64,000 bases of DNA from a virus (Duplodnaviria > Heunggongvirae > Uroviricota > Caudoviricetes). The stretch lies in IMG/VR virus record IMGVR_UViG_2541047802_000007, one strand, 5' to 3'. Position 1 is the first letter of the stretch. Each line of letters opens with the position of its first letter. Below, piece by piece: positions 3,361-56,818 of this stretch. The position numbers and the translations under genes were made by a program. The notes below the pieces were generated by a model that was not told the origin of the DNA, searched no databases, and saw nothing but the letters and a program-made list of their open reading frames with translations.

Positions 3361-3427
3361 AATCAATTCTCCTGAATTTAGATAAAGGGATGCCCGGCGG
3401 GTTTACGCCATTAATTTCATTAGTTGC

Positions 3428-3769: not shown

Positions 3770-3791
3770 AATTCATATCCCCAAAACGCAA

Positions 3792-4183: not shown

Positions 4184-4190
4184 AAGCACC

Positions 4191-4700
4191 TCACAGCAAA
4201 CCGAATGAAGCACCGAGGCCAGTCACGGTATCAACTGCACTCACCATCGCAGGATTAGCCTGTAAACGGGCCTGCAATGAAACAGCCGCCAGCGCCATCA
4301 GTCGTGTTACAGAGTTAATGCTGCTGATAGCATCACGACGACCGGCACTAGTTTTTACATCACCAGATACCGCACCTGCTGCAACACGCCCGATCTCTGC
4401 AGTTGCGCTCATGACGTAATGCGGCAGTTTCTCTTTTGCCACCTCATTAATCGGTACACATGGCAGACAATGAATCTGTGCCAGAAAACCATCTACCAGC
4501 GTTGAATCTTCAGTCAGATCGGTAAGCAGCCAGATTTCTGGTGCGGTTAATAAATGAGGCTGAGCTGGGTTCAGCTTGTTCCGCAGAATCTGCACATTCA
4601 TGCCTGCACGTTCTGCCAGTTGCACCAGGTTGTGACGCAGTGCAAAAGCCCTACAGGCTTCATCGAAATGCGGATGTTTGGAAATCTTGTAATCAAACAT
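4191..4700 (-). CDS. cII: CII-like phage regulatory protein (186 family)
   Basis: 169 aa, position directly after apl in the early operon; mirror of 25438..25947. Confidence 0.65.
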
Positions 4701-4732
4701 GGTGCCCCCTTAGAAAGTTCCCATAATTGAAC

Positions 4733-4975
4733 TTACTTACCAACAATGACGCGGAAGTTGGAATGACCGAGGGATTCACGGACCTGATCAGTTTTGTACA
4801 TCAGATAACGAAGGCTTACGCGGCCTTTATTTTTTTCTTTCTTGACCATGTACTTAGCAAGTTGACCATGGTGAATTTTTTGGTAAACAGAGCCACGGGA
4901 AATGCCCTCCCACTCTGCGAACTCTGCAGGCGTAGCCATCTCTTTTGGTACACGAATTGAAATATCAGTACTCAT
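4733..4975 (-). CDS. apl: Apl/Cox-like small HTH excisionase-repressor
   Basis: 80 aa, first gene of rightward early operon opposite cI. Confidence 0.55.
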   Translation of the reverse strand: MSTDISIRVPKEMATPAEFAEWEGISRGSVYQKIHHGQLAKYMVKKEKNKGRVSLRYLMYKTDQVRESLGHSNFRVIVGK

Positions 4976-5096
4976 AGTGCAGTATCTCTTACTTTGTGTG
5001 CGTGTTAGTTCGTTTTAGCTCGTCTCTTTAACTCTCACATCAAGAGACACGAAGACATTACGATCTTGATTCAAGATTGTCAAATGGAGATTACCA
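4976..5096. promoter_or_regulatory. cI / apl switch region (divergent early promoters and operators)
   Basis: 121-bp intergenic region between divergent cI and apl with short inverted repeats (atcttgattcaagat). Confidence 0.4.
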
Positions 5097-5729
5097 ATGT
5101 TAAACATCAGAATGGGTTCCGATACGGGAGGTAAGGCAGCTATTGAGAGGCTGCTTGAGGCTTATGGATTCACAACTAAGCAGGCATTAAGCGAGCACCT
5201 GAATGTCTCAAAAAGTACTATGGCAAACAGAGTGTTACGTGACAGTTTTCCTGCTGACTGGATAATTCAGTGTGCACTAGAAACCGGTGTTTCGTTACTT
5301 TGGTTAGCCACTGGACAGGGAAGCATGAAAGAAGGATACGAGTCTGAGAAAAGATCTCATAACGAGAACAAACAAGCAATTAAACCGTTATCCAAACTCA
5401 TAACTCCATCTATTCCTAAAGGAACCTTGGAAAATGGACAACTCAGTATTGATGAAGAGATTTTCCTAGACCACAGCATATTACCTGCAGATTATGAAGA
5501 ATCGATGTTCTTAGAAACCCCTACTGATTGTTATCTCATCGATAAATCAGTTAAACAAGTCAGCAATGGATTCTGGCTTATCAATATTGATGGAATGATT
5601 ATTATTGCAAAAATCATGCGGATTCCCGGCAATAAGATTGTAGTAAATCAAGATGAAGCGTCTTTCGAGTGCTCTGCCGATGATGTGGAAGTTATTGGGC
5701 GTGCAGTCAAAGTAATAAAGAGTATCTAA
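5097..5729 (+). CDS. cI: CI-type immunity repressor
   Basis: 210 aa, N-terminal HTH-like region, adjacent to int and opposite apl. Confidence 0.7.
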   Translation: MLNIRMGSDTGGKAAIERLLEAYGFTTKQALSEHLNVSKSTMANRVLRDSFPADWIIQCALETGVSLLWLATGQGSMKEGYESEKRSHNENKQAIKPLSKLITPSIPKGTLENGQLSIDEEIFLDHSILPADYEESMFLETPTDCYLIDKSVKQVSNGFWLINIDGMIIIAKIMRIPGNKIVVNQDEASFECSADDVEVIGRAVKVIKSI

Positions 5730-5731
5730 AC

Positions 5732-6751
5732 ATGACTGTCAGAAAACAGCCAAACGGTAAATGGTTGTGCGAGTGCTATCCCAATGGACGCAATGGCAAG
5801 CGCGTGCGTAAGCAATTTGCTACGAAAGGCGAAGCCATTGCTTTTGAAAGCTTCACAATGGAAGAAGTGAACAAAAAACCATGGCTGGGGGAAAAGGAAG
5901 ATCGGCGACACCTATCAGAATTAATTGAGCAGTGGTATTCCCTGTATGGTCAAACACTCGCAGACCCCAAGCGCCTCATAGCGAAACTTAGAATTATCTG
6001 TAATGGTCTAGGCGATCCCATCGCTTCAGAACTGACAGCCGGTGACTTTACGAAATACCGCGAAGCACGGTTAAAAGGTGAAGTACGAAATGAAGATGGC
6101 ACGTTTATGTCGCCCGTTAAGCCCCGCACGGTAAACCTTGAACAGCGCAATCTATCATCTGTTTTTGGTACACTGAAAAAGCTGGGCCACTGGTCAGCCC
6201 CCAACCCGCTTGCTGGGCTGCCAACATTTAAAATTGCTGAGAGTGAATTGGCGTTCCTGACCCCGGAAGAAATTAAACGTCTGCTGGATGCCTGCGCCGA
6301 TTCTCAAAGCTCCAGCCTGCTTTTGATTGCAAAAATATGCCTGGCCACCGGCGCACGCTGGAGCGAAGCCGAAAACCTGCAGAGTCATCAGGTATCAAAA
6401 TACCGTATCACTTATACCAAGACCAAAGGCAAGAAAAACCGAACTGTGCCTATTTCTAAGGATTTATATGAAGAACTGCCTAAGAATAGGGGGAAGTTAT
6501 TCACCCCATGCAGAAAAGCCTTTGAGCGTGCAGTAAAGCGAGCCGGTTTAGAACTACCAGAAGGCCAATGTACCCATGTTCTGCGCCATACATTTGCCAG
6601 TCATTTTATGATGAACGGTGGAAATATACTGGTACTGCGCGATATTCTTGGACATGCCGATATAAAAATGACGATGATTTACGCTCATTTTTCCCCAGAT
6701 CATCTTGAAGATGCAGTAACTAAAAACCCATTAGCAACCTTGATGGATTAA
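5732..6751 (+). CDS. int: Tyrosine integrase (P2/186 family)
   Basis: 339 aa; C-terminal HxLRHT...Y catalytic region (VLRHTFASH, MIYAHF). Confidence 0.9.
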   Translation: MTVRKQPNGKWLCECYPNGRNGKRVRKQFATKGEAIAFESFTMEEVNKKPWLGEKEDRRHLSELIEQWYSLYGQTLADPKRLIAKLRIICNGLGDPIASELTAGDFTKYREARLKGEVRNEDGTFMSPVKPRTVNLEQRNLSSVFGTLKKLGHWSAPNPLAGLPTFKIAESELAFLTPEEIKRLLDACADSQSSSLLLIAKICLATGARWSEAENLQSHQVSKYRITYTKTKGKKNRTVPISKDLYEELPKNRGKLFTPCRKAFERAVKRAGLELPEGQCTHVLRHTFASHFMMNGGNILVLRDILGHADIKMTMIYAHFSPDHLEDAVTKNPLATLMD

Positions 6752-6755
6752 GCAC

Positions 6756-7979
6756 ATGCGCAACATTATCGAATTAGAACAGATATCGGAAGAACTAAAA
6801 AAACATGAACTATTGCAACCCCCATTCATTGCCGAGGGAAAACTAATTTCTGACTTTTCTAAGAGAGTCGAGTGCTATTTAGAATTAATTGACTCCATTA
6901 GAAATAAATATCCTGACAACGAGATAATTAAACAAGTAAAGATTCGCACAAAATCAATAATATATTTATCTGATAAAATAATAGAAACTCTTAAGCTATT
7001 TTTAATAGGAAATGTTAAAGAAGCTTATAAAAAATTCGATTTGGCAATTACCAAGTCATCAATGCATACTCATCTTTATAAGATGACTGTTCCTCTAACT
7101 AAATTATGCAACCCACACACCCCTTTATTTCGCGTAAGGAAAAGTGAGTGCATCCTAAAACAAAGAGAAGAATTATTTCATATACCATTTAAAAATAGAC
7201 ATTTAGTTAGCGCACAAAGATTTTCTGTATCCGGTCTTCCATGTTTATATCTTGGAACATCAATATTTGTATGTTGGCAAGAAATGGGAAAACCTGACTT
7301 TGATAAACTTTACATATCTTCCTTCATATCCGATAAAGAAAATTCAAATATAAGAATTTTAGATCTTGGGTACAATTTAACATCTGCACTTCGTACAAAA
7401 CCGGGAGATCTTTGGTATTCATTCGAACAAGGTTCAGATGATGATTACGATCTAAATAATGATAATTTCATGGATCAAATTAATGATAAAATTTCAAAGT
7501 TGATTGCATGGCCTTTAGTCCTTGCATGTAACTATACAAAAGATAATGAAAACGCAAGTTTTAATAAAGAATACATAATACCAAACCTATTAATGCAATG
7601 GATTAGTAGTGACAGAAACAAAAATATATCAGGGATATCGTATCGATCAACAAAGATATTAAACCAAAAAGATAGCGATATTGGGATTAATGTAATTATC
7701 CCCCCAAAAATAGAAAACATAGTTGAAACCAATGATACCCACTGTCCTGTTTTAAAAAAAATATTTAGAGTTACAAACCCTGTTTCCTGGACTGTGTTTA
7801 GTACACTAGAAGCCACCCCCTATCTATACAAAAATAATTTTAATTTTTCGACCTATAATCCCGCAAAAGGATGGATTGAAGACTTTGATGAATCCCTTGT
7901 TGAACATTATGAAAATACCACTTTTAGAAAAGTTGAACTCCTTATTCATCAAATGATGAAGTATGAATATTTAAAATAA
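6756..7979 (+). CDS. AT-rich cargo protein with RES-domain-like motif
   Basis: 407 aa; QRFSVSGLPCLYLGTSIFVCWQE resembles RES Arg-Glu-Ser signature; sits between int and att. Confidence 0.45.
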   Translation: MRNIIELEQISEELKKHELLQPPFIAEGKLISDFSKRVECYLELIDSIRNKYPDNEIIKQVKIRTKSIIYLSDKIIETLKLFLIGNVKEAYKKFDLAITKSSMHTHLYKMTVPLTKLCNPHTPLFRVRKSECILKQREELFHIPFKNRHLVSAQRFSVSGLPCLYLGTSIFVCWQEMGKPDFDKLYISSFISDKENSNIRILDLGYNLTSALRTKPGDLWYSFEQGSDDDYDLNNDNFMDQINDKISKLIAWPLVLACNYTKDNENASFNKEYIIPNLLMQWISSDRNKNISGISYRSTKILNQKDSDIGINVIIPPKIENIVETNDTHCPVLKKIFRVTNPVSWTVFSTLEATPYLYKNNFNFSTYNPAKGWIEDFDESLVEHYENTTFRKVELLIHQMMKYEYLK

Positions 7980-8095
7980 GAGTGGCGGCATAATGGCGGC
8001 AAAGAGTTAAAAACACATAAAACAAGGTAATACATCGTAAACTTAAGTGATTGAAAATTAACATAAATAGTTGTTTTGCAACATGTTATAATGGT

Positions 8096-8140
8096 ATGTA
8101 GGAATTTCGGACGCGGGTTCAACTCCCGCCAGCTCCACCA
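8096..8140 (+). other. ssrA: ssrA (tmRNA) 3'-end fragment ending CCA = prophage att core
   Basis: atgtaggaatttcggacgcgggttcaactcccgccagctccacca matches tmRNA 3' end; upstream tmRNA body absent. Confidence 0.8.
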
Positions 8141-8267
8141 ATCATGATTGGACGGTGTAAGGACAACACCAACAAAAACAGGAAGTTAGAAGTCTCAGCA
8201 GGACACCGACCAGACGGTGAGGAGACATAAAAGGATACGCAAAGGAGCCGCGGCTCCGAAGTGAAAT

Positions 8268-8293
8268 GAAAGCCCGCTGATGCGGGCTTTTTT
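8268..8293 (+). terminator. Rho-independent terminator
   Basis: gcccgc-tgat-gcgggc hairpin followed by T6. Confidence 0.5.
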
Positions 8294-8525
8294 GCTTCTT
8301 CTCTTTAGCCTGATTCGACACTCTCAATGCGGCCATAAACAACAACCCACTTTTCTTATACCGTAGCCTGTCCCCCTCTTCCTGCTTTCTAACCATAACA
8401 GATGTGAGCGTTTGCTATGAGCGATATATAGTCATTCGTACCCTCCGATACTAATCATCACAGAAATTAATATATTCATTCCTTACTGAAAAGCTATGAA
8501 GTAGATATATAGGATTGGGGCGCGT

Positions 8526-8723
8526 ATGGCACTGGACAGTTATGCATCTCCGAATATTATTCCGGAGCTAAGACAACCGAATGCCGCAGCAGGTAAGATC
8601 ACGCTAGGGGGGCTGGACAGAATGGCTGTTACGCCCAGTGTGAAGAAAAGAAGGCTAAGTATGGTAGAATTTCCATACGCACAGACCTTGTTATCCGACT
8701 ATACAGCCTGGAAGGCACTATGA
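8526..8723 (+). CDS. Hypothetical small protein, 4-nt overlap with next gene
   Basis: ORF track 65 aa. Confidence 0.3.
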   Translation: MALDSYASPNIIPELRQPNAAAGKITLGGLDRMAVTPSVKKRRLSMVEFPYAQTLLSDYTAWKAL

Positions 8724-9508
8724 CAAATCTACAACTGGAAGAAAGATTTAGGGCGCTTGAGAAAGATTACGATGCGCTCATTTCCACAAAATATACTGCG
8801 CAGAACGTTCTCACTCACACTATGGAAACCTATGTTGATTCTGGTAAATATAAAAACTGGATCGCCAGAGTGAAAAAGTTAATAGAGGACAGCTACGGAA
8901 AAGAGTCTGATTATTACAATGACTTCAATACTGTAAACAGCAGGTGGTCTTCTAATTACAATACACTGATCAAAAGTTATAAACCGTTGTTTGATGCGGC
9001 GAGAGATGATCTTGCGCACTCTGCTGTCAGTACTAATACTCCTCAAGAAGGTTCGCCGCTGAGCCTCGTACTTAATATTCTTAACAGGTTTCCGACCTTT
9101 GTTCGCCAGTTAAAGAGGCGGTACAACGGCCGTGCGCCGCTTGAAGTTAATGATGAGTATGACGTACAGGATTTGATTTATGCACTGCTGACGCTTCATT
9201 TTAATGATATTAGGGCGGAAGAGTATACCCCCAGCTTTGCGGGCGCGGCCTCAAGACAGGACTTTCTTTTGAAAAAAGAGAAAATTGTGATAGAGGTGAA
9301 GAAAACCCGTGAATCTCTGGGAGCGGGTAAAGTTGGTGGAGAGTTGCTTATTGATATGGCGCGCTACCGCGCTCACCAAGACTGCGATACGTTGATCTTG
9401 TTTGTATATGACCCGGATTGCTACATAAATAATCCTTTGGGCGTGAAAACCGATCTGGAATCTAAAGACGCGGAAGGAAAAGTGAAGGTTGTTATTGCGC
9501 AGTTCTGA
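8720..9508 (+). CDS. Hypothetical protein with PD-(D/E)xK-like nuclease motif
   Basis: 262 aa; C-terminal D...IVIEVKK pattern. Confidence 0.45.
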   Translation: MTNLQLEERFRALEKDYDALISTKYTAQNVLTHTMETYVDSGKYKNWIARVKKLIEDSYGKESDYYNDFNTVNSRWSSNYNTLIKSYKPLFDAARDDLAHSAVSTNTPQEGSPLSLVLNILNRFPTFVRQLKRRYNGRAPLEVNDEYDVQDLIYALLTLHFNDIRAEEYTPSFAGAASRQDFLLKKEKIVIEVKKTRESLGAGKVGGELLIDMARYRAHQDCDTLILFVYDPDCYINNPLGVKTDLESKDAEGKVKVVIAQF

Positions 9509-9595
9509 CACGCTTAAGTGTCACCTTACAGGATTAGGTTTGCGGCCGTGCCAGCAGGACGAGCATGAAAAAGGCCGCTGGCACGGCCGGATTTG

Positions 9596-9889
9596 TCATC
9601 TTTGCCAGGTCAAATCAAAATCTACGTGAAAATCCGCAGGCTTAAGCTCGCAACTGCCACCACGCCCAATTAACGACGTTATGTTTACAACGTTTGAACC
9701 TGTTGAGATGGCAAGTTGAGTGTCATCTGTAAACGTGATGATTAGCATTTCAGTCTGATGAACCTGTACTCCAGTTTTCTGAAAACCAATCTGGACAGAT
9801 TTCACCGTTTTCCCAACCATTTCACGGGCTTGATTGATAGAGTAATTAGCTTCAACTTGTAGGTCATTCCTGAACTTGGGTAGTGTCAT
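9596..9889 (-). CDS. Hypothetical small protein
   Basis: ORF track 97 aa. Confidence 0.35.
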   Translation of the reverse strand: MTLPKFRNDLQVEANYSINQAREMVGKTVKSVQIGFQKTGVQVHQTEMLIITFTDDTQLAISTGSNVVNITSLIGRGGSCELKPADFHVDFDLTWQR

Positions 9890-10099
9890 TTTACATCCTC
9901 TTTAGTGAAGTTTTCGCTATTTAAATCAGCAGCATTCCTTTTAAATCACTGGCATGTCAGCAGTGGATAGTCTGAGTGTAACGTCCAGTGAGGGGAATAA
10001 ATATTGGTCAGACTTTGCACAAAAGAGCCAACTATCGCGGGCTCTCTCTCATCATGTGCGAAAATTGACCACAATATGAAATCCAGTTCCATTCCGAAA

Positions 10100-10924
<825 letters not shown>

Positions 10925-11034
10925 TCAATTGACAACTTATAATCCCTACTAGTTAGCATTATGATTTCCAGAGTGAGGAATATAAAAATCTCTGTTTCTG
11001 GCACATAACAGCCCTTAAGATCGTAGCTCGCCAT

Positions 11035-11080
11035 CATGGGGTGTCGGGGGGCGGAGGTTCAAATCCTCTCGTGCCGACCA
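11035..11080 (+). other. tRNA-Pro (proL-like) 3' fragment ending CCA; probable att-site remnant
   Basis: catggggtgtcggggggcggaggttcaaatcctctcgtgccgacca matches 3' portion of tRNA-Pro; 5' half missing. Confidence 0.65.
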
Positions 11081-11092
11081 AAAATCCCTTAA

Positions 11093-11121
11093 GAACCAGC
11101 CTATTATGGCTGGTTTTTTTA
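11093..11121 (+). terminator. Rho-independent terminator after tRNA-Pro fragment
   Basis: aaccagcc-tattatg-gctggtt hairpin then T-run. Confidence 0.55.
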
Positions 11122-11288
11122 TGATTGTTTTTTATGCGGAGAAATACCGGGGAATAATTGGGGTAAAACACCTTTAGGCTATTCACTTAGCCTACCACCA
11201 TCAAAATCTTTCCGAATGTATCCATCTCTTTTTTCTTATGCAGCTAAAACGAAGTCTTGATACTGTTTATTTACACAGATAAGAATAA

Positions 11289-11308
11289 TACTGTCTACAA
11301 ACGCAGTA
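11289..11308. promoter_or_regulatory. LexA-box-like sequence
   Basis: tactgtctacaaacgcagta = CTGT-N8-GCAG, one mismatch from CTGT-N8-ACAG. Confidence 0.35.
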
Positions 11309-11321
11309 CAAAAGAAGTGTT

Positions 11322-11500
11322 ATGCGTATTGAGATCTCCATAGCCAAAGACAAAATGACCAAATGCCAAACGGCGCTGTGGACGCGTTAAAGGAAGAATT
11401 AACCCAACACATTGGCAAGCGTTATGACGATGTGGAGATGATCGTAAAAGCCACCAGCAACGATAGTTTTTCAGTTAGACATACTGCAGATAAAGATTGA
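11322..11500 (+). pseudogene. dinI-like gene disrupted by frameshift
   Basis: [11 protein letters not shown] in one frame, ...[25 protein letters not shown]... in another; both halves DinI-like. Confidence 0.4.
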
Positions 11501-11924
11501 GCTAAAACTTTCGTTCAGGAAACTCTGAATGATACCTGAGAGTCTACTGAAGAGTTGTTTGTTCACTAGTTAGCACGTAGGAAATCATTCAATACTCGCA
11601 CTATCGGAAGTTCACCAGCCAGTCGTAGCACGTCCTTGCAAACGACGTGCCTACGGTTTCAATCACCTCTCACCATCAATTCTATCAATAATAATTAAAC
11701 AGCGCCTAGACAAAATAAATAACAACAAGTCAACAACCTCGACAGGATGCCGATGGGATGATGAAGAGATAAGAAAGAATAACCAGTAAAGCCCTAAAAC
11801 GTCAGCGTTCAGACGCGTTTTTTACTTAATCGGTAACAAATACGTTGTATCATAGCAAAATAAAATGATTGTTCTAAATCAGATTAACTCCTCACTTTTG
11901 TACAATGTCGCTTACAGGTATACC

Positions 11925-13814
11925 ATGAAATCCGAGACGCTAACTGTCCAACAACTTTTTCAAGACCGCCGACAATACTGTGTTCCATTCTATCAACGTG
12001 CCTATGTATGGACTCAGCAAGACCAGTGGTCAGCTCTACTGGAGGATATCCTAGAGAAAGTACAATCCCGGCTCTCGGGTACAAAACCAACTCCCCATTT
12101 CCTTGGTGCGGTTGTACTGGAACCTCAATCAAAAAAAGGATTATTAGGTGTAGATTCCATACATATTATTGATGGTCAGCAACGATTGACCACTCTTCAA
12201 TATGTTCTGGCATCCATCCGATTAGCATTACGTGCTACGGATCTTTCCAGCTTAGAGGCTCTCATTTCGCCTTGCCTGAAAAACTCAAACGAAGACACAA
12301 TGCGAAATAAAGAAGTAGAACGCTTCAAACTGTGGCCAACTTTTCGGGATCAAACTCATTTTATTCAAAGTTTTAATGTTGAAAATATTGACGATCTCCG
12401 GGACGTATTCTCTGATAGTTTCACGCAGCATGGTACGTTGCGTAAGCATTTTAATCACCCGCCATCACTAGAAGCATTATGTTTTTTTACTGAAGCCTTT
12501 ATAAAATGGATTAAAATAGAAAACCACTCACCACAAGAAAATGCTGTAGCTCTAATTGAGGCTGTCTTAACAGATCTGAAACTGGTAAGCATATTTCTCG
12601 AAGCTGAAGATGATGCCCAAATAATTTTTGAAACATTAAATGGGCGAGGGGCGGAACTTCATGCTACGGATCTTATTCGCAACTATATCTTTATGTGCGC
12701 TGAGCATGAAAATATTAATGCTATTGAATTATATGAAAATGAGTGGAAGAGCTTTGAAGATAAATACTGGTCGGAAAAACAACGCCGTGGACGTATTAAT
12801 AAACCACGCATGGAGTGGCTAGTACATGCGACATTGCAATCAGAAAGGCAACGTGAAATTGATCTGTCTCGCCTTTACAATGAGTATCGTGATTATGTAA
12901 GTAAGGACTTGTCTTCACAACGAGCAGATCTGCAAGTAAAGCGCCTCAAACAATATGCATCACAATATAAAGAATTGGTTGATGGTTTTGGCACAACCCC
13001 CATCTCACACTTTGGATATCGCATCGCAGACTATGATGTGACGACACTTTATCCGCTTGCTTTGTTCATTTCGATAGCTAACATCGCTGATGATGAGAAA
13101 GCAGCCATGTATAATGATCTTGTCTCCTACGTAGTACGAAGAGCCGTATGTGGCCTGACGCCAAAGAATTACAACAATGTATTTATGAATGTATTGCGGC
13201 ACTTGGCTAAAACGGAAATTTCCAGTGTTGAGTTACGTAATATCCTCAATAACTTAAATGGCGAAGCCTCACGTTGGCCTGGTGACTCAGAATTTCTCAA
13301 CGCTTGCATCAATGCTCCACTTTATCCTGGCAGGCTCGACGCACCGAAAATGCGCTCAATGTTAACGGAACTTGAAAGAGAACTTTGTCGCCAAGTAAAG
13401 ACAGAAAAGCCTGATGTTCCAAATCTTTCTAATCTCGATATCGATCATCTTATGCCTCAAAGTTGGTATTCCTGTTGGCCTCTCGAAAATGGTCGTATGG
13501 TGACAAATTCAGATGCTACGGTATTGAACCAAATTGTTCTGTCTGGAACCGATCTTACCCCTGAACAGCTACTGGTAAGGAAACGGCAACAAGCGATATC
13601 TACTTTGGGAAATCTAACTTTGCTTAACCTTAGCGTAAACCGTTCTGTTCAGAATGCTGTATTTCTGAAAAAACGTGATGCTCTCATCGTCCACACCAAT
13701 CTACGACTGAACATTCCACTTATAGTTAAGGATAAATGGGATGAGGATGAAATCCTGGAGCGGGGTAAAAAGTTGGGGGAAATTGCATTGAAAGTATGGC
13801 CAAAACACGATTAA
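11925..13814 (+). CDS. GmrSD-like type IV restriction endonuclease (DUF262 + DUF1524)
   Basis: FYQRAYVW and IDGQQR motifs N-terminal; DIDHLMPQSW...GNLTLLNLSVN C-terminal; track start 11865, ATG 11925 preferred. Confidence 0.7.
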   Translation: MKSETLTVQQLFQDRRQYCVPFYQRAYVWTQQDQWSALLEDILEKVQSRLSGTKPTPHFLGAVVLEPQSKKGLLGVDSIHIIDGQQRLTTLQYVLASIRLALRATDLSSLEALISPCLKNSNEDTMRNKEVERFKLWPTFRDQTHFIQSFNVENIDDLRDVFSDSFTQHGTLRKHFNHPPSLEALCFFTEAFIKWIKIENHSPQENAVALIEAVLTDLKLVSIFLEAEDDAQIIFETLNGRGAELHATDLIRNYIFMCAEHENINAIELYENEWKSFEDKYWSEKQRRGRINKPRMEWLVHATLQSERQREIDLSRLYNEYRDYVSKDLSSQRADLQVKRLKQYASQYKELVDGFGTTPISHFGYRIADYDVTTLYPLALFISIANIADDEKAAMYNDLVSYVVRRAVCGLTPKNYNNVFMNVLRHLAKTEISSVELRNILNNLNGEASRWPGDSEFLNACINAPLYPGRLDAPKMRSMLTELERELCRQVKTEKPDVPNLSNLDIDHLMPQSWYSCWPLENGRMVTNSDATVLNQIVLSGTDLTPEQLLVRKRQQAISTLGNLTLLNLSVNRSVQNAVFLKKRDALIVHTNLRLNIPLIVKDKWDEDEILERGKKLGEIALKVWPKHD

Positions 13815-13926
13815 TGCAATTAATAAAATGATTATAGTGGCCTTACATTAGTAAGGCCGCTACTCACTATTAAATACTTTAATTTGCATCAAGAACAGCA
13901 GTGTCAGCCCTAGGTCTCGGACTTTG

Positions 13927-14049
13927 TACCGCTTATCTTGTCTTCAAAAATCAGCTCGCATCCTGCACAGTTCAGCGCATTACGTTGTAGATCTGTGTTC
14001 TGGTCATTTGTTGACACACGTACATAGCCAATAAGCATGGTAGATCTCC
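13927..14049 (-). pseudogene. Pin-like serine invertase, truncated after ~41 codons
   Basis: MLIGYVRVSTNDQNTDLQRNALNCAGCELIFEDKISGTKSE then stop; intact homolog at 56819..57436. Confidence 0.75.
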
Positions 14050-14092
14050 CTGACAAAAGCAGGAATGATGCCATTTGCTCGTTATTTCTGCA

Positions 14093-14118
14093 TTTTCATA
14101 AACGTTGGTTTGGGAGAA
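14093..14118. other. 26-bp invertase crossover site (pix/hix-like), left
   Basis: ttttcataaacgttggtttgggagaa; inverted copy at 16020..16045. Confidence 0.7.
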
Positions 14119-14559
14119 GCGGCAAAACGGAATGTGGGCAACGGGGAAAACCAAATCCCTGATATGTCTTTCTGGACGGTTACTGGTGGCAATGGAAATT
14201 TTGTGATTCGTCAACCTGACGGGCTAATCATTCAGATGGTTACTGTAAGTATAAGCGGCCCAGTGGCGATGAATGGAATGACTGATAATGCTTATGCCAT
14301 CACAGGTTCTAATAAGTCTTATATTGCCACAGCCACATTGCCCTTTGTATTTCCTAATAAGGTGCTGGGCGTTATCCCTCTGGTATCAACAACAGCTTAT
14401 GGTGGTGTATCCAGTAATATTACAGGTTCATACGCGACGGCGGTTTGTTCTTTTGCCGCTGTCAGGGGGAATAATACGATTGTGTTCAAAGTCGACAAAC
14501 CACTGAATGCAGCCTTTCCTTCAGATACCAGCGTCTCAGCGTTAATCATTGGACGGTAA
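14119..14559 (+). CDS. Tail-fibre C-terminal variable segment (Sv type), no own start
   Basis: Open frame runs through crossover site (FINVGLGE); track ORF 14065..14559 has artefactual N-terminus. Confidence 0.6.
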   Translation, partial: AAKRNVGNGENQIPDMSFWTVTGGNGNFVIRQPDGLIIQMVTVSISGPVAMNGMTDNAYAITGSNKSYIATATLPFVFPNKVLGVIPLVSTTAYGGVSSNITGSYATAVCSFAAVRGNNTIVFKVDKPLNAAFPSDTSVSALIIGR

Positions 14560-14561
14560 TA

Positions 14562-15005
14562 ATGAACTCAGTATTCTTTTCACCCGGAAGTAAAAGTTTT
14601 TATCTGCAAGAATTGTTTCCAGAATATGAGGATGCGGGAACGCTTCCTGATGATGTTATTGAAATTACCAGAGAAACATATGAGCAATTTCTTGGTCTGC
14701 ATCCAGAAGGGAAAGAAATTGGCGCTGACAGTTCAGGACGGCCAGTATGGATTAATTCCCCACCCCCTTCAAAAGAGGATGAGGTGTTGACGGCTGAAAT
14801 GAAAAAAATATCTTTGGTTTCAGAAGTCAATACCTACATCAATACCCATCAGTGGCCTGGCAAAGCTGCTATTGGTCGTCTGAAAGGCGAGGAACTGGCG
14901 CAATATAATTCGTGGCTGGATTATCTGGACGCACTGGAACTGGTCGATACTTCCTGTGCGCCAGATATTGAATGGCCTACGCCTCCGGCAGTTCAGGCCA
15001 GATGA
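14562..15005 (+). CDS. Tail fibre assembly chaperone
   Basis: 147 aa directly after Sv; C-terminal DIEWPTPP. Confidence 0.65.
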   Translation: MNSVFFSPGSKSFYLQELFPEYEDAGTLPDDVIEITRETYEQFLGLHPEGKEIGADSSGRPVWINSPPPSKEDEVLTAEMKKISLVSEVNTYINTHQWPGKAAIGRLKGEELAQYNSWLDYLDALELVDTSCAPDIEWPTPPAVQAR

Positions 15006-15579
15006 CATCCGGCGCTGTGCTGGTATTTGTTGCCGTCACCGCGTCAATGTAATCCAGCACAGCGTTAAGCCGGGTTGTTTCTGCCTGCATCAGCTTCCGT
15101 CCGGCCTGTAATTTCAGCTGAATCAGACCGATGGAAGCCATTGCAGCATCAATCAGTGACTGACGCTGTGCTTCTGCCGCGTCTACTGCGGCGCTATGCT
15201 GTGCCTCAGTATCGGTCACCCATTTCTCACCATCCCATTTATCGTATGGCGTTAATGGGGCAATAGTGGTTGTATTTTCGGGGTAATCACCCGGTGCTGT
15301 GATTTGTTTTGATTCTCCCGTTTCGGTGTTATAGACGATTTCACCGCGATGGTCTGGCACATATTCCCATGAATTTAAATTCACAGAACGACAGATAGCA
15401 TAACCCGCCTTATGTATACCTGGTGCATCCAGACAGGAATATGCCGGGATACCAACACCAACGGCAAGATATTCACTTGAAGTGGAAATATATTCCCGAG
15501 TTTCACCATCATAGTTATAAACGGTAATATCCCCTGCCTTTGTAGCAACAAGTCCACTATTTAATATTGCTTTATCCAT
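14977..15579 (-). CDS. Tail fibre assembly chaperone (TfaE-like), near-identical to prophage gpG at 47600..48202
   Basis: 200 aa MDKAILNSGLVATKAGDITVYNYDGETREY...; TAATG overlap with Sv' stop. Confidence 0.75.
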   Translation of the reverse strand: MDKAILNSGLVATKAGDITVYNYDGETREYISTSSEYLAVGVGIPAYSCLDAPGIHKAGYAICRSVNLNSWEYVPDHRGEIVYNTETGESKQITAPGDYPENTTTIAPLTPYDKWDGEKWVTDTEAQHSAAVDAAEAQRQSLIDAAMASIGLIQLKLQAGRKLMQAETTRLNAVLDYIDAVTATNTSTAPDVIWPELPEA

Positions 15580-16019
15580 TATGCTGCTCTCACGATATAG
15601 TTAAATGCAATGTTGCGTGGACGGGTATCGACGGGGTTAACGGCCACTGTACCCGACACGGACTGGTCATTACCGTTGCTAACGGTAATGTTACTACTGG
15701 TTGATCCAATCCCTACTGAATCGGTAAATTTAGCACCTGAGCCGCTCAAAGTTCCCGAGATGATAGCTAGCTCCACATAAAAAGTACCTACAGTTGGCTC
15801 TTGTGTTGACAGCACCGCACGCCTTGAATCAACGCCGCGCCCATCATCCCAGCCACGAATAAACTCACCACGTAAATCAGGCAATTTATTTGTCGGATAA
15901 GCCTTTGCCAGTTCCGGGTATTCTTCAGCAGAAAAAGCCGCACCGTTGCATTTCAGCCAGCCTGTTGGCGGTGTGGCTGAAGGCCATGGAACAGGCACAC
16001 CAACAGGTAATGCAGAGCC
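15579..16019 (-). CDS. Tail-fibre C-terminal variable segment (Sv' type), no own start
   Basis: GEGSALPVGVPVPWPSATPPTGWLKCNGAAF... shares N-part and last 13 aa with gpH C-terminus. Confidence 0.65.
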   Translation of the reverse strand, partial: GSALPVGVPVPWPSATPPTGWLKCNGAAFSAEEYPELAKAYPTNKLPDLRGEFIRGWDDGRGVDSRRAVLSTQEPTVGTFYVELAIISGTLSGSGAKFTDSVGIGSTSSNITVSNGNDQSVSGTVAVNPVDTRPRNIAFNYIVRAA

Positions 16020-16045
16020 TTCTCCCAAACCAACGTTTATGAAAA
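16020..16045. other. 26-bp invertase crossover site, right
   Basis: ttctcccaaaccaacgtttatgaaaa. Confidence 0.7.
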
Positions 16046-16088
16046 TGCAGAAATAACGAGCAAATGGCATCATTCCTGCTTTTGTCAG

Positions 16089-16211
16089 GGAGATCTACCA
16101 TGCTTATTGGCTATGTACGTGTGTCAACAAATGACCAGAACACAGATCTACAACGTAATGCGCTGAACTGTGCAGGATGCGAGCTGATTTTTGAAGACAA
16201 GATAAGCGGTA
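16089..16211 (+). pseudogene. Pin-like serine invertase, truncated after ~41 codons
   Basis: Same N-terminus as Gin at 56819..57436, then abrupt divergence and stop. Confidence 0.75.
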
Positions 16212-16323
16212 CAAAGTCCGAGACCTAGGGCTGACACTGCTGTTCTTGATGCAAATTAAAGTATTTAATAGTGAGTAGCGGCCTTACTAATGTAAGGCCA
16301 CTATAATCATTTTATTAATTGCA

Positions 16324-18213
16324 TTAATCGTGTTTTGGCCATACTTTCAATGCAATTTCCCCCAACTTTTTACCCCGCTCCAGGATTTCATCCTCATCCC
16401 ATTTATCCTTAACTATAAGTGGAATGTTCAGTCGTAGATTGGTGTGGACGATGAGAGCATCACGTTTTTTCAGAAATACAGCATTCTGAACAGAACGGTT
16501 TACGCTAAGGTTAAGCAAAGTTAGATTTCCCAAAGTAGATATCGCTTGTTGCCGTTTCCTTACCAGTAGCTGTTCAGGGGTAAGATCGGTTCCAGACAGA
16601 ACAATTTGGTTCAATACCGTAGCATCTGAATTTGTCACCATACGACCATTTTCGAGAGGCCAACAGGAATACCAACTTTGAGGCATAAGATGATCGATAT
16701 CGAGATTAGAAAGATTTGGAACATCAGGCTTTTCTGTCTTTACTTGGCGACAAAGTTCTCTTTCAAGTTCCGTTAACATTGAGCGCATTTTCGGTGCGTC
16801 GAGCCTGCCAGGATAAAGTGGAGCATTGATGCAAGCGTTGAGAAATTCTGAGTCACCAGGCCAACGTGAGGCTTCGCCATTTAAGTTATTGAGGATATTA
16901 CGTAACTCAACACTGGAAATTTCCGTTTTAGCCAAGTGCCGCAATACATTCATAAATACATTGTTGTAATTCTTTGGCGTCAGGCCACATACGGCTCTTC
17001 GTACTACGTAGGAGACAAGATCATTATACATGGCTGCTTTCTCATCATCAGCGATGTTAGCTATCGAAATGAACAAAGCAAGCGGATAAAGTGTCGTCAC
17101 ATCATAGTCTGCGATGCGATATCCAAAGTGTGAGATGGGGGTTGTGCCAAAACCATCAACCAATTCTTTATATTGTGATGCATATTGTTTGAGGCGCTTT
17201 ACTTGCAGATCTGCTCGTTGTGAAGACAAGTCCTTACTTACATAATCACGATACTCATTGTAAAGGCGAGACAGATCAATTTCACGTTGCCTTTCTGATT
17301 GCAATGTCGCATGTACTAGCCACTCCATGCGTGGTTTATTAATACGTCCACGGCGTTGTTTTTCCGACCAGTATTTATCTTCAAAGCTCTTCCACTCATT
17401 TTCATATAATTCAATAGCATTAATATTTTCATGCTCAGCGCACATAAAGATATAGTTGCGAATAAGATCCGTAGCATGAAGTTCCGCCCCTCGCCCATTT
17501 AATGTTTCAAAAATTATTTGGGCATCATCTTCAGCTTCGAGAAATATGCTTACCAGTTTCAGATCTGTTAAGACAGCCTCAATTAGAGCTACAGCATTTT
17601 CTTGTGGTGAGTGGTTTTCTATTTTAATCCATTTTATAAAGGCTTCAGTAAAAAAACATAATGCTTCTAGTGATGGCGGGTGATTAAAATGCTTACGCAA
17701 CGTACCATGCTGCGTGAAACTATCAGAGAATACGTCCCGGAGATCGTCAATATTTTCAACATTAAAACTTTGAATAAAATGAGTTTGATCCCGAAAAGTT
17801 GGCCACAGTTTGAAGCGTTCTACTTCTTTATTTCGCATTGTGTCTTCGTTTGAGTTTTTCAGGCAAGGCGAAATGAGAGCCTCTAAGCTGGAAAGATCCG
17901 TAGCACGTAATGCTAATCGGATGGATGCCAGAACATATTGAAGAGTGGTCAATCGTTGCTGACCATCAATAATATGTATGGAATCTACACCTAATAATCC
18001 TTTTTTTGATTGAGGTTCCAGTACAACCGCACCAAGGAAATGGGGAGTTGGTTTTGTACCCGAGAGCCGGGATTGTACTTTCTCTAGGATATCCTCCAGT
18101 AGAGCTGACCACTGGTCTTGCTGAGTCCATACATAGGCACGTTGATAGAATGGAACACAGTATTGTCGGCGGTCTTGAAAAAGTTGTTGGACAGTTAGCG
18201 TCTCGGATTTCAT
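16324..18213 (-). CDS. GmrSD-like type IV restriction endonuclease (DUF262 + DUF1524)
   Basis: Mirror of 11925..13814. Confidence 0.7.
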   Translation of the reverse strand: MKSETLTVQQLFQDRRQYCVPFYQRAYVWTQQDQWSALLEDILEKVQSRLSGTKPTPHFLGAVVLEPQSKKGLLGVDSIHIIDGQQRLTTLQYVLASIRLALRATDLSSLEALISPCLKNSNEDTMRNKEVERFKLWPTFRDQTHFIQSFNVENIDDLRDVFSDSFTQHGTLRKHFNHPPSLEALCFFTEAFIKWIKIENHSPQENAVALIEAVLTDLKLVSIFLEAEDDAQIIFETLNGRGAELHATDLIRNYIFMCAEHENINAIELYENEWKSFEDKYWSEKQRRGRINKPRMEWLVHATLQSERQREIDLSRLYNEYRDYVSKDLSSQRADLQVKRLKQYASQYKELVDGFGTTPISHFGYRIADYDVTTLYPLALFISIANIADDEKAAMYNDLVSYVVRRAVCGLTPKNYNNVFMNVLRHLAKTEISSVELRNILNNLNGEASRWPGDSEFLNACINAPLYPGRLDAPKMRSMLTELERELCRQVKTEKPDVPNLSNLDIDHLMPQSWYSCWPLENGRMVTNSDATVLNQIVLSGTDLTPEQLLVRKRQQAISTLGNLTLLNLSVNRSVQNAVFLKKRDALIVHTNLRLNIPLIVKDKWDEDEILERGKKLGEIALKVWPKHD

Positions 18214-18637
18214 GGTATACCTGTAAGCGACATTGTACAAAAGTGAGGAGTTAATCTGATTTAGAACAATCATTTTATTTTGCTATGATACAACGTATTT
18301 GTTACCGATTAAGTAAAAAACGCGTCTGAACGCTGACGTTTTAGGGCTTTACTGGTTATTCTTTCTTATCTCTTCATCATCCCATCGGCATCCTGTCGAG
18401 GTTGTTGACTTGTTGTTATTTATTTTGTCTAGGCGCTGTTTAATTATTATTGATAGAATTGATGGTGAGAGGTGATTGAAACCGTAGGCACGTCGTTTGC
18501 AAGGACGTGCTACGACTGGCTGGTGAACTTCCGATAGTGCGAGTATTGAATGATTTCCTACGTGCTAACTAGTGAACAAACAACTCTTCAGTAGACTCTC
18601 AGGTATCATTCAGAGTTTCCTGAACGAAAGTTTTAGC

Positions 18638-18816
18638 TCAATCTTTATCTGCAGTATGTCTAACTGAAAAACTATCGTTGCTGGTGGCTTTTACGATCAT
18701 CTCCACATCGTCATAACGCTTGCCAATGTGTTGGGTTAATTCTTCCTTTAACGCGTCCACAGCGCCGTTTGGCATTTGGTCATTTTGTCTTTGGCTATGG
18801 AGATCTCAATACGCAT
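18638..18816 (-). pseudogene. dinI-like gene disrupted by frameshift
   Basis: Mirror of 11322..11500. Confidence 0.4.
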
Positions 18817-18829
18817 AACACTTCTTTTG

Positions 18830-18849
18830 TACTGCGTTTGTAGACAGTA
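18830..18849. promoter_or_regulatory. LexA-box-like sequence
   Basis: Mirror of 11289..11308. Confidence 0.35.
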
Positions 18850-19016
18850 TTATTCTTATCTGTGTAAATAAACAGTATCAAGACTTCGTTTTAGCTGCAT
18901 AAGAAAAAAGAGATGGATACATTCGGAAAGATTTTGATGGTGGTAGGCTAAGTGAATAGCCTAAAGGTGTTTTACCCCAATTATTCCCCGGTATTTCTCC
19001 GCATAAAAAACAATCA

Positions 19017-19045
19017 TAAAAAAACCAGCCATAATAGGCTGGTTC
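19017..19045 (-). terminator. Rho-independent terminator
   Basis: Mirror of 11093..11121. Confidence 0.5.
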
Positions 19046-19057
19046 TTAAGGGATTTT

Positions 19058-19103
19058 TGGTCGGCACGAGAGGATTTGAACCTCCGCCCCCCGACACCCC
19101 ATG
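19058..19103 (-). other. tRNA-Pro 3' fragment (att remnant)
   Basis: Mirror of 11035..11080. Confidence 0.65.
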
Positions 19104-19213
19104 ATGGCGAGCTACGATCTTAAGGGCTGTTATGTGCCAGAAACAGAGATTTTTATATTCCTCACTCTGGAAATCATAATGCTAACTAGTAGGGATTATA
19201 AGTTGTCAATTGA

Positions 19214-20038
<825 letters not shown>

Positions 20039-20248
20039 TTTCGGAATGGAACTGGATTTCATATTGTGGTCAATTTTCGCACATGATGAGAGAGAGCCCG
20101 CGATAGTTGGCTCTTTTGTGCAAAGTCTGACCAATATTTATTCCCCTCACTGGACGTTACACTCAGACTATCCACTGCTGACATGCCAGTGATTTAAAAG
20201 GAATGCTGCTGATTTAAATAGCGAAAACTTCACTAAAGAGGATGTAAA

Positions 20249-20542
20249 ATGACACTACCCAAGTTCAGGAATGACCTACAAGTTGAAGCTAATTACTCTA
20301 TCAATCAAGCCCGTGAAATGGTTGGGAAAACGGTGAAATCTGTCCAGATTGGTTTTCAGAAAACTGGAGTACAGGTTCATCAGACTGAAATGCTAATCAT
20401 CACGTTTACAGATGACACTCAACTTGCCATCTCAACAGGTTCAAACGTTGTAAACATAACGTCGTTAATTGGGCGTGGTGGCAGTTGCGAGCTTAAGCCT
20501 GCGGATTTTCACGTAGATTTTGATTTGACCTGGCAAAGATGA
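20249..20542 (+). CDS. Hypothetical small protein
   Basis: ORF track 97 aa. Confidence 0.35.
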   Translation: MTLPKFRNDLQVEANYSINQAREMVGKTVKSVQIGFQKTGVQVHQTEMLIITFTDDTQLAISTGSNVVNITSLIGRGGSCELKPADFHVDFDLTWQR

Positions 20543-20629
20543 CAAATCCGGCCGTGCCAGCGGCCTTTTTCATGCTCGTCCTGCTGGCACGGCCGCAAAC
20601 CTAATCCTGTAAGGTGACACTTAAGCGTG

Positions 20630-21418
20630 TCAGAACTGCGCAATAACAACCTTCACTTTTCCTTCCGCGTCTTTAGATTCCAGATCGGTTTTCACGCCCA
20701 AAGGATTATTTATGTAGCAATCCGGGTCATATACAAACAAGATCAACGTATCGCAGTCTTGGTGAGCGCGGTAGCGCGCCATATCAATAAGCAACTCTCC
20801 ACCAACTTTACCCGCTCCCAGAGATTCACGGGTTTTCTTCACCTCTATCACAATTTTCTCTTTTTTCAAAAGAAAGTCCTGTCTTGAGGCCGCGCCCGCA
20901 AAGCTGGGGGTATACTCTTCCGCCCTAATATCATTAAAATGAAGCGTCAGCAGTGCATAAATCAAATCCTGTACGTCATACTCATCATTAACTTCAAGCG
21001 GCGCACGGCCGTTGTACCGCCTCTTTAACTGGCGAACAAAGGTCGGAAACCTGTTAAGAATATTAAGTACGAGGCTCAGCGGCGAACCTTCTTGAGGAGT
21101 ATTAGTACTGACAGCAGAGTGCGCAAGATCATCTCTCGCCGCATCAAACAACGGTTTATAACTTTTGATCAGTGTATTGTAATTAGAAGACCACCTGCTG
21201 TTTACAGTATTGAAGTCATTGTAATAATCAGACTCTTTTCCGTAGCTGTCCTCTATTAACTTTTTCACTCTGGCGATCCAGTTTTTATATTTACCAGAAT
21301 CAACATAGGTTTCCATAGTGTGAGTGAGAACGTTCTGCGCAGTATATTTTGTGGAAATGAGCGCATCGTAATCTTTCTCAAGCGCCCTAAATCTTTCTTC
21401 CAGTTGTAGATTTGTCAT
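20630..21418 (-). CDS. Hypothetical protein with PD-(D/E)xK-like motif
   Basis: Mirror of 8720..9508. Confidence 0.45.
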   Translation of the reverse strand: MTNLQLEERFRALEKDYDALISTKYTAQNVLTHTMETYVDSGKYKNWIARVKKLIEDSYGKESDYYNDFNTVNSRWSSNYNTLIKSYKPLFDAARDDLAHSAVSTNTPQEGSPLSLVLNILNRFPTFVRQLKRRYNGRAPLEVNDEYDVQDLIYALLTLHFNDIRAEEYTPSFAGAASRQDFLLKKEKIVIEVKKTRESLGAGKVGGELLIDMARYRAHQDCDTLILFVYDPDCYINNPLGVKTDLESKDAEGKVKVVIAQF

Positions 21419-21612
21419 AGTGCCTTCCAGGCTGTATAGTCGGATAACAAGGTCTGTGCGTATGGAAATTCTACCATACTTAGCCTTCTTTTCTTCACAC
21501 TGGGCGTAACAGCCATTCTGTCCAGCCCCCCTAGCGTGATCTTACCTGCTGCGGCATTCGGTTGTCTTAGCTCCGGAATAATATTCGGAGATGCATAACT
21601 GTCCAGTGCCAT
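21415..21612 (-). CDS. Hypothetical small protein
   Basis: Mirror of 8526..8723. Confidence 0.3.
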   Translation of the reverse strand: MALDSYASPNIIPELRQPNAAAGKITLGGLDRMAVTPSVKKRRLSMVEFPYAQTLLSDYTAWKAL

Positions 21613-21844
21613 ACGCGCCCCAATCCTATATATCTACTTCATAGCTTTTCAGTAAGGAATGAATATATTAATTTCTGTGATGATTAGTATCGGAGGGTAC
21701 GAATGACTATATATCGCTCATAGCAAACGCTCACATCTGTTATGGTTAGAAAGCAGGAAGAGGGGGACAGGCTACGGTATAAGAAAAGTGGGTTGTTGTT
21801 TATGGCCGCATTGAGAGTGTCGAATCAGGCTAAAGAGAAGAAGC

Positions 21845-21870
21845 AAAAAAGCCCGCATCAGCGGGCTTTC
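21845..21870 (-). terminator. Rho-independent terminator beyond att
   Basis: Mirror of 8268..8293. Confidence 0.5.
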
Positions 21871-21997
21871 ATTTCACTTCGGAGCCGCGGCTCCTTTGCG
21901 TATCCTTTTATGTCTCCTCACCGTCTGGTCGGTGTCCTGCTGAGACTTCTAACTTCCTGTTTTTGTTGGTGTTGTCCTTACACCGTCCAATCATGAT

Positions 21998-22042
21998 TGG
22001 TGGAGCTGGCGGGAGTTGAACCCGCGTCCGAAATTCCTACAT
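21998..22042 (-). other. ssrA: ssrA 3'-end fragment = prophage att core
   Basis: Revcomp matches tmRNA 3' end ending CCA; 3' end points away from prophage. Confidence 0.8.
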
Positions 22043-22158
22043 ACCATTATAACATGTTGCAAAACAACTATTTATGTTAATTTTCAATCACTTAAGTTTA
22101 CGATGTATTACCTTGTTTTATGTGTTTTTAACTCTTTGCCGCCATTATGCCGCCACTC

Positions 22159-55410: not shown

Positions 55411-55422
55411 GTTTTATGTATG

Positions 55423-55869: not shown

Positions 55870-55913
55870 CTAATATGCTCCGTATGTGAGTAAATACATA
55901 AATTTATATGATA

Positions 55914-56760: not shown

Positions 56761-56818
56761 CTCACCTCCTTTGCATCAATTCGCCACTATCTTAAAAAAC
56801 ATCGTGGGTTGAGTGTGG

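Follow-up and report, generated by a model that had tools for sequence, protein, structure and literature searches.

In prophage e14 of Escherichia coli K-12, the 184-codon gene pinE, encoding a serine invertase of the Pin/Gin/Cin/Hin family, lies just outside the P segment, a 1.8-1.9 kb invertible tail-fibre segment with two tfa genes. This segment has been inverted experimentally by the invertases of other cryptic prophages, with PinE, PinQ and PinR all acting on the e14 site, and cross-reactivity of Pin with Hin and Gin substrates is cited in the same work (PMC12529663). In the Hin system, the enhancer measures 65 bp, has a Fis site at either end and is located about 100 bp from hixL, and three Fis sites are found in the coding region of gin (eLife 2013; NAR 2012). 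Prophage ends may also hold defence cargo ('moron' or hotspot regions, as with mcrA of e14 and old/tin/fun of P2), in which interchangeable defence genes stand between conserved flanks. Finally, the restriction enzymes Eco94GmrSD and UTI89_C2960 (the 'UT enzyme'), which are prophage-borne and encoded 'immediately downstream of the tail fibre genes', have been reported to cleave DNA containing glucosylated 5-hydroxymethylcytosine (glc-5hmC) or 5hmC and to restrict T-even phages (He et al. 2015, PMC4437046). Here we analyse a 64,000-nucleotide stretch of DNA (IMG/VR virus record IMGVR_UViG_2541047802_000007; hereafter the window), in which a truncated copy of pinE beside an invertible tail-fibre segment is joined, at positions 16,089-16,323, to a convergent gene for a GmrSD type IV restriction endonuclease.

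Genome comparison identified the window as a segment of an E. coli chromosome of the MS7163/S88-like type, with a single mismatch to strain MS7163 over the 39,313 nt of positions 16019-55331 (99.997% identity). It runs from the right end of a prophage integrated at ssrA, whose tail genes are of the Mu type, through defence cargo into a P2-like prophage spanning about 22.0-55.3 kb; no gene for transfer-messenger RNA lies within the window. The features on which the argument depends are the following.

14120-16018: invertible tail-fibre segment of 1899 bp, with two alternative fibre C-termini and two tail-fibre assembly genes
16020-16045: pixR crossover site of 26 bp, TTCTCCCAAACC AA CGTTTATGAAAA, with the core AA at 16032-16033
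16100-16228, plus strand: pinE remnant (the stub) of 42 codons and a stop, matching positions 2-48 of the 145 of the Pfam Resolvase profile
16121-16207: predicted recombinational enhancer of the Fis-dependent type, within the pin 5' end that has been kept
16222-16247, plus strand: decayed pin tail, codons 42-50, where a net -1 frameshift in the window allele creates the TAG stop
16250-16323, minus strand: imperfect palindrome of 74 nt, forming the 3' flank of GmrSD and unrelated to pinE
16277-16302: hairpin core with an 11-12 bp stem and a 4-nt loop
16324-18213, minus strand: intact gene for a single-chain GmrSD type IV restriction endonuclease of 629 aa, with its stop codon at 16324-16326, convergent with the stub
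56819-57436, minus strand: intact Gin-type invertase of a Mu-like prophage, with full-length Pfam Resolvase and HTH_7 matches (HTH_7 at residues 138-181)

The stub consists of the first 41 codons of an e14-type pinE serine invertase gene, the rest of which is gone. Its reading frame opens with an ATG at 16100 and closes with a TAG at 16226-16228, giving the product MLIGYVRVSTNDQNTDLQRNALNCAGCELIFEDKISGTKSET. This product retains the catalytic-serine motif MLIGYVRVST, the same as in PinE. The Resolvase match (PF00239, about 145 positions) covers residues 3-41 only, however, leaving the catalytic domain incomplete; about two-thirds of that domain and the whole of HTH_7 (PF02796) are missing. Whereas K-12 pinE has all of its 184 codons, the window keeps 41-50 of them, with no catalytic core past the serine motif and no DNA-binding domain, and the 42-aa product therefore cannot recombine DNA. 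At the nucleotide level no difference separates the stub from intact pinE genes up to 16221 (100% identity); over the first 122 nt, identity is 97.5% with the K-12 gene and 100% with other alleles of pinE. When two PinE proteins and the Gin of the window were compared with the whole window by tblastn, residues 1-44 matched at 16100-16231 and at a mirror copy of the junction described below, and no invertase C-terminus was found in any of the six frames (E <= 10), the intact Gin being a separate locus. The Prokaryotic Genome Annotation Pipeline (PGAP) labels the same stretch in IHE3034, MS7163 and other strains as 'recombinase family protein; incomplete; missing C-terminus', beside a 'DUF262 domain-containing protein'.

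The first-pass annotation had described an invertase that matches the intact Gin up to about codon 41 and then diverges into unrelated sequence with a stop and a hairpin, and all of these elements are in the sequence: similarity between stub and Gin is confined to 16064-16221 in the window self-repeat comparison and by tblastn, and the TAG stop and the hairpin follow. Alignment with e14-type pin regions, which it had proposed as a check, allowed the boundary to be placed more exactly. In about 1,180 genomes with an intact pinE, similarity to the window ends at 16221, in many of them at 100% identity, and some blastn alignments extend to 16234-16245 at lower identity. In two junction alleles that preserve the frame, those of CFSAN064036 and RHB23, AAGTCCGA is followed by no indel, and 17 of the 27 nucleotides aligned ungapped to pinE codons 42-50 are matches (P of about 4e-4 at p = 0.3); the next three 27-nt blocks give 8/27 matches, the chance level. 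Across this patch the pinE residues RPGLKKLL have become SLGLTVLF. From these alignments, pin-derived sequence appears to end at about 16247, near codon 50, with its last ~26 nt heavily decayed. The boundary at codon 41 thus stands as the end of identity (16221), but not as the end of pin homology, which continues in decayed form for another ~26 nt. At 16221, identity drops from 100% to about 63%; the best reading is that a tract exchanged later with a live pinE allele, by recombination or conversion, ends there.

Beyond the pin-derived sequence, the 74-nt palindrome folds on the GmrSD strand with a minimum free energy of -26.2 kcal/mol (z = -5.8), and none of 200 shuffled sequences was equally stable. 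The hairpin is kept in diverged alleles of the junction, where it has a perfect 10 bp stem. A scan for a stem followed by a T-run, covering both strands of 15900-16500, returned no terminator, the tails of the hairpin being A/T-rich and not T-runs. The hairpin is probably a transcript-end or insulator element between the convergent genes, which would end the GmrSD transcript and block read-through from the orphan pin promoter. The convergent GmrSD gene had been recognised correctly at first pass; its distance from the invertase, given as 110 bp, had not, since the GmrSD stop codon lies 95 nt from the stop of the stub, or 102 nt from the end of pinE identity.

The GmrSD gene is complete. It contains GmrSD_N (PF03235, DUF262/GmrS) over the full profile with E = 7e-34 and GmrSD_C (PF07510, DUF1524/GmrD, an HNH-type nuclease) at full length with E = 4e-20, and the PADLOC profile mREase_IV matches residues 1-629 of 629 with 1415 bits. 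The DGQQR motif is found at residue 83, and D507, H508 and N522 are present. The exact protein occurs in 7,944 blocks of a public protein collection, and in IHE3034 and MS7163, where the stretch is 100% identical, it is annotated as WP_000834402.1. Domains, the DGQQR motif, the D-H...N residues and the prophage location next to tail-fibre genes are all as in Eco94GmrSD and UTI89_C2960, from which the window enzyme shows no difference of substance; the invertase stub between GmrSD and the tail-fibre segment goes unmentioned in PMC4437046. Eco94GmrSD is 93% identical to the window enzyme.

The junction is not peculiar to the window. A megablast query of 16100-16800 against complete E. coli genomes found it, at a query coverage of at least 80%, in 298 of 5,426 (~5%). 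The way in which it may have arisen is best seen at e14 itself, integrated at icd. In K-12 the order is pinE-mcrA-icd'-iraM, whereas in CFSAN064036, at the same icd site, it is pin'-GmrSD-icd'-iraM, so that the downstream neighbour of the invertase is the opposite-strand GmrSD gene, as in the window, and not mcrA. A BLAST comparison of the two e14 prophages returned only three shared stretches: the baseplate genes, the pix site with pin nucleotides 1-136 (90%), and the icd'/iraM flank (99.6%), which starts at the attachment (att) core. Relative to K-12, 1584 bp comprising the 3' end of pinE and mcrA are out, and 2811 bp comprising the hairpin, GmrSD and about 830 bp upstream of it are in. The two ends of the swapped block share no 8-mers, direct or inverted, and neither a transposase or integrase gene inside it nor a target-site duplication was found. 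The suggestion made at first pass, that the original neighbour of the invertase had been replaced by a restriction module, is borne out by this comparison.

In the window, the region beyond GmrSD contains further cargo.

18214-22025: rest of the cargo region up to an ssrA-derived attachment remnant, known from the annotation of the identical stretch in IHE3034 and MS7163 and from Pfam and PADLOC
~18599-18816, minus strand: DinI-like pseudogene (dinI')
19265-20038, plus strand: PD-T4-3 GIY-YIG gene
20630-21418, minus strand: DpnII/MboI-like nuclease
within 18214-22025: open reading frame of 97 aa

Relatives of the ssrA prophage of the window that have an intact pinE (PA11, YZ22PE165 and GPEC349-628) carry, after pinE, a convergent LEM-3-like GIY-YIG gene, which is PD-T4-3 by PADLOC, and then either an AraC gene or a type II restriction-modification pair. 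Across the loci compared, the interchangeable cargo includes McrA, GmrSD, PD-T4-3, type II restriction-modification and the DpnII-like nuclease, with flanks that are conserved as in the known hotspot regions. Unlike in those regions, the exchange has its left edge within the invertase gene, not between genes, and the neighbouring gene has been disabled. The pin'-GmrSD(-dinI') block also occurs in lambdoid prophages beside gpJ, lom and tail-fibre genes (strains 800, Iso00270 and 167, the copies of the last two being further rearranged), and in RHB23 the pin'-GmrSD block adjoins the integrase of another element. The junction is therefore found in at least three backgrounds, namely the ssrA Mu-tail type, e14 at icd, and lambdoid.

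Across its alleles the junction is 91-100% identical, with similar divergence in stub, flank and GmrSD, which argues for one old event followed by spread through flanking homology. The initial event would have been a single exchange of everything from pin codon ~50 to the prophage end, with illegitimate joining on the left. The module would later have spread by homologous recombination via conserved flanks, namely the invertible segment with the pin 5' end at one edge and att or host sequence at the opposite edge. The junction is real, and we are highly confident that it was left by an old replacement of cargo at the right-hand end of prophages of the e14 family. As such it is ordinary, being an annotated pseudogene beside a characterised enzyme family. 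What the first-pass annotation had missed is that the junction is old, widely inherited and annotated already as a pseudogene, and that the window contains two copies of it within a perfect 14-kb palindrome.

Two further observations concern the upstream side of the module. In YZ22PE165 (L007, 10702-10950), sequence 95% identical to the ssrA-proximal att region of the window (21846-22025) abuts an 83%-similar counterpart of 18476-18558. The latter stretch is located a short way upstream of GmrSD, and homology to the lambdoid-context copies also stops at 18558, which may be the other edge of the GmrSD module. Where the module sits in e14 at icd, in L023 (NZ_CP028166.1), the ~830 bp upstream of GmrSD contain a tandem repeat of the form (GGTTGGTG)n at ~5390-5440.

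Other origins of the junction were weighed against replacement. That the invertase is truly intact and merely appears truncated through a sequencing or assembly error (a frameshift or local misassembly) had been raised at first pass, in the form of a full-length frame recoverable by a single-base correction. The net -1 frameshift of the window allele, set against the frame-preserving alleles, and the suspicious palindrome in the window speak for such an error. Nevertheless, no pin C-terminus is present in any frame of the window, the sequence past ~16247 is unrelated to pinE (8/27), and the identical junction occurs in ~298 independently assembled complete genomes, where PGAP annotates the gene as partial; we regard the chance of an error as negligible. 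GmrSD could instead be an autonomous mobile cassette, transposon-like, insertion sequence (IS)-like or integrase-borne, that inserted into pinE, and both the occurrence of the pin'-GmrSD-dinI' block in several unrelated prophage backgrounds and the frequency of IS elements as neighbours would fit this. However, the swapped block has no terminal inverted repeats, target-site duplication, transposase or integrase, and the 3' two-thirds of pinE are absent rather than displaced. Furthermore, the block always comes with the pin stub and mostly with the invertible segment, a pattern that fits spread by flanking homology better than repeated insertion at the same nucleotide. Insertion of a cassette is thus very unlikely.

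An inversion with one breakpoint inside pinE, for instance through the action of Pin on a pseudo-site, would account for the strand of the PD-T4-3 GIY-YIG gene, which is flipped between the two arrangements: intact loci have pinE (plus) and GIY-YIG (minus), the window has pin' (plus), GmrSD (minus), dinI' (minus) and GIY-YIG (plus). Such an event should have left the inverted 3' part of pinE beside GIY-YIG, and the window contains none. In addition, the two GIY-YIG genes are only 75% identical in DNA, and are thus different alleles or modules and not the products of a recent flip. A simple inversion is excluded on these two grounds, and an origin of the junction by inversion of any kind is highly improbable.

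We now turn to the crossover site and the segment beside the stub. The pixR site contains CCTTCTCCCAAACCAA, which is the inversion site of the e14 P segment in PMC12529663 and is identical to the crossover site of K-12. Its natural partner on the tail-fibre side, as seen in other genomes, has the inner half and the core in common with it and differs in the outer half, which is GGTTTTCGAGAG. The segment shares its architecture with that of K-12 e14, with Pfam matches to Gp53-like_C, Caudo_TAP (twice) and Collar. Three candidate Fis cores of the form G-N13-C are found at coding nucleotides 22-36, 71-85 and 94-108 and are common to the stub and the gin of the window. The first is ~96 bp from the centre of the pix site and the second lies 49 bp beyond the first; all fall within 16121-16207, which is part of the block of full conservation. 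With pixR, the ~96 bp spacing and the predicted Fis enhancer remaining, the stub would keep every cis element for inversion.

Both orientations of the segment next to the stub are found in nature. Orientation-specific junction queries of 701 nt matched 67 and 79 complete genomes respectively, in both cases at 100% identity, with IHE3034 and APEC O1 carrying it one way and NU14 and MS7163 the other. We take these four to be closely related strains of one lineage, ST95. The truncation is common to alleles down to 91% identity and therefore predates these strains; the flips would then have come after loss of the cognate invertase, and thus in trans. Pin/Gin-family invertases of co-resident prophages would drive the segment, in the window the Gin of the Mu-like prophage, which is 78% identical in protein to PinE, adjoins mom and the G segment, and lies 41 kb away. 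The case resembles the trans inversion of the e14 P segment by PinQ and PinR (PMC12529663) in its site, its segment architecture, the heterologous invertase in the genome and the two orientations in nature. It differs in that the cognate PinE is intact in K-12 and dead in the window, where any inversion must be wholly trans-driven. Judging from these comparisons, invertases of the Pin/Gin family encoded by co-resident prophages probably continue to flip the tail-fibre segment in trans, and we attach moderate confidence to this.

The stub could alternatively be a neutral scar beside a frozen segment, the two orientations reflecting an old polymorphism or homologous recombination that brought in entire modules. 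The stub is conserved no better than GmrSD, the prophage modules are visibly mosaic, and one carrier, PMV-1, has no second pin-like 5' region by blastn, all of which would suit a frozen segment. Against it stand the near-even split of 67:79 at 100% identity, with both orientations among IHE3034/APEC O1 and NU14/MS7163, and a truncation older than its carriers. Heterologous enzymes of the Pin family also invert identical e14 sites experimentally (PMC12529663), and in NZ_CM132301 recombination has joined the segment to the invertible region of a P2-like prophage whose invertase is intact. A frozen segment is therefore possible, but on the unlikely side.

Inversion in trans and the replacement history given above have several points against them, which we collect here. 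Trans inversion is deduced from sequence, and the predicted enhancer rests on weak G-N13-C cores from a crude motif scan, on the texts of eLife 2013 and NAR 2012 and on homology. Conservation in diverged alleles is 94-96% for the stub and 93-96% for GmrSD, so that alignment of the alleles gives no positive sign of selection on the cis elements of the stub. No sigma-70-like promoter or canonical terminator was called in 15900-16500. The decayed 26-nt patch, read above as lying beyond the edge of a conversion tract, could alternatively reflect repair-associated mutation at the original joint. Finally, a donor locus, meaning GmrSD with the same 3' flank and without the pin stub, was not found: phage and plasmid collections returned the same junction or gene-only homologues at 72%, and a scan of a genome collection returned two loci, of which the closer (Enterobacteriaceae bacterium B14, 77% aa) loses similarity at the stop codon.

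Two other genomes show the segment in altered surroundings. In strain 2022E04-002 (NZ_CM132301.1, 8417-11200), it lies between the pin stub with GmrSD on one side and an intact recombinase with P2-like tail genes on the other. This arrangement apparently results from an exchange between the invertible regions of two prophages, which would be equivalent to a large chromosomal inversion. In NZ_CP178648.1 (2240-4940), an IS66-family element (ISCro1) sits within pixR at the equivalent of window position 16038/16039, a few bases from the crossover core, and GmrSD is truncated by a second IS66 element. The insertion in pixR should lock the segment in this strain.

As mentioned, the junction is present twice in the window, as part of a larger duplication.

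1-30137: 1899-bp invertible segment between the arms of a perfect inverted repeat, each arm being at least 14,119 bp long
11925-13814, plus strand: mirror copy of GmrSD
13815-14118, minus strand: mirror copy of the junction, with pix at 14093-14118, pin remnant at 13910-14038 and the hairpin flank (mirror of the 16,089-16,323 junction itself at 13815-14049)

Positions 1-14119 are the exact reverse complement of 16019-30137, the arms being 100% identical, and since the left arm runs into the edge of the window, the full repeat could extend further. On its inner side each arm stops exactly at a pix site, and both of these sites have the pixR-type outer half. In the usual genome layout, the segment separates the tail-fibre and baseplate genes of the prophage from pin'-GmrSD, whichever way it is turned. 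The palindrome with both arms was found in 0 of the 5,426 complete E. coli genomes, in 0 of nine IMG/VR contigs with the junction and in 0 of the nine contig places listed for the exact GmrSD protein. The arrangement in the window (B'-segment-B) holds exactly the two junction types expected of a culture mixed for segment orientation, and an assembler could therefore yield the palindrome by wrong pairing of branches. We consider it quite likely that the palindrome is such a misassembly artefact, arising from mixed segment orientations.

A real inverted duplication, arising from recombination of pixL on one sister chromosome with pixR on the other or from a template switch at the pix repeats, would place the arm ends at the pix sites with an R-type outer half on both, as expected for exchange at the core AA. 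The window also has an intact Gin, and actual exchange between prophages at such sites exists (NZ_CM132301). On the other hand, joining of the junctions of a mixed-orientation culture by an assembler should give the same sequence, the arms are 100% identical, the palindrome was unseen in the genomes and contigs compared, and the window lacks the body of the prophage to which the segment belongs. Moreover, a chromosome dimerised head to head could be neither resolved nor segregated, and Fis-dependent invertases strongly disfavour intermolecular sites. A real duplication is accordingly improbable. Artefact or real, the palindrome hints at flipping of the segment in the sequenced culture.

The remainder of the window contributes several observations apart from the junction. 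The P2-like prophage carries its own defence-type cargo at 31437-32846 and 41712-43412, consisting of PD-T7-1 (PADLOC, 652 bits) and an AIPR/AbiU-like protein. Its P2-type replication endonuclease gene (gpA, 28089-30529) is broken into open reading frames of 695 and 118 aa, and PGAP labels the identical gene of MS7163 'frameshifted'; given the split gpA, this prophage is probably defective. At 55331, a Mu-type right end (TGAAGCGGCGCACGAAAAG..., TGAAGCGGCGCACGAAAAGCGCGAAAGCGTTTCA) interrupts ogr of the P2-like prophage, so that 29 codons of Ogr remain before the break. Beyond this end, within 55331-64000, come an open reading frame of 148 aa, mom (55914-56651), gin and a G segment bounded by 55-nt inverted repeats at 57491-57545 and 60457-60511. 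The Mu-like phage of the window occupies many different chromosomal sites in other assemblies, and its junction with ogr was seen neither in the IMG/VR contigs with the pin'-GmrSD junction nor in the exact-protein look-ups for GmrSD and Mom. NCBIfam gave no match for seven proteins of the window.

The junction has little importance in itself. It is a tidy case of the exchange of defence cargo at prophage ends in which the adjacent gene was disabled. A practical consequence is that a segment of this kind can give rise, during assembly, to a perfect palindrome of 14 kb or more, and users of the record should treat this part of the sequence as suspect. More speculatively, the stub may be a retained 'orphan switch', a pix site with a predicted Fis enhancer, so that the segment is invertible only if another prophage supplies Pin or Gin; we consider this unlikely. 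Were it true, the palindrome would record trans activity, either through a culture containing both orientations or, with lower probability, as a genuine pix x pix product between molecules, and the phase variation of the prophage in tail fibres and anti-adsorption would be coupled to co-resident prophages. A segment whose own invertase is dead, and which nevertheless occurs in both orientations, supports the recently published idea of cross-service by Pin-family invertases between prophages.

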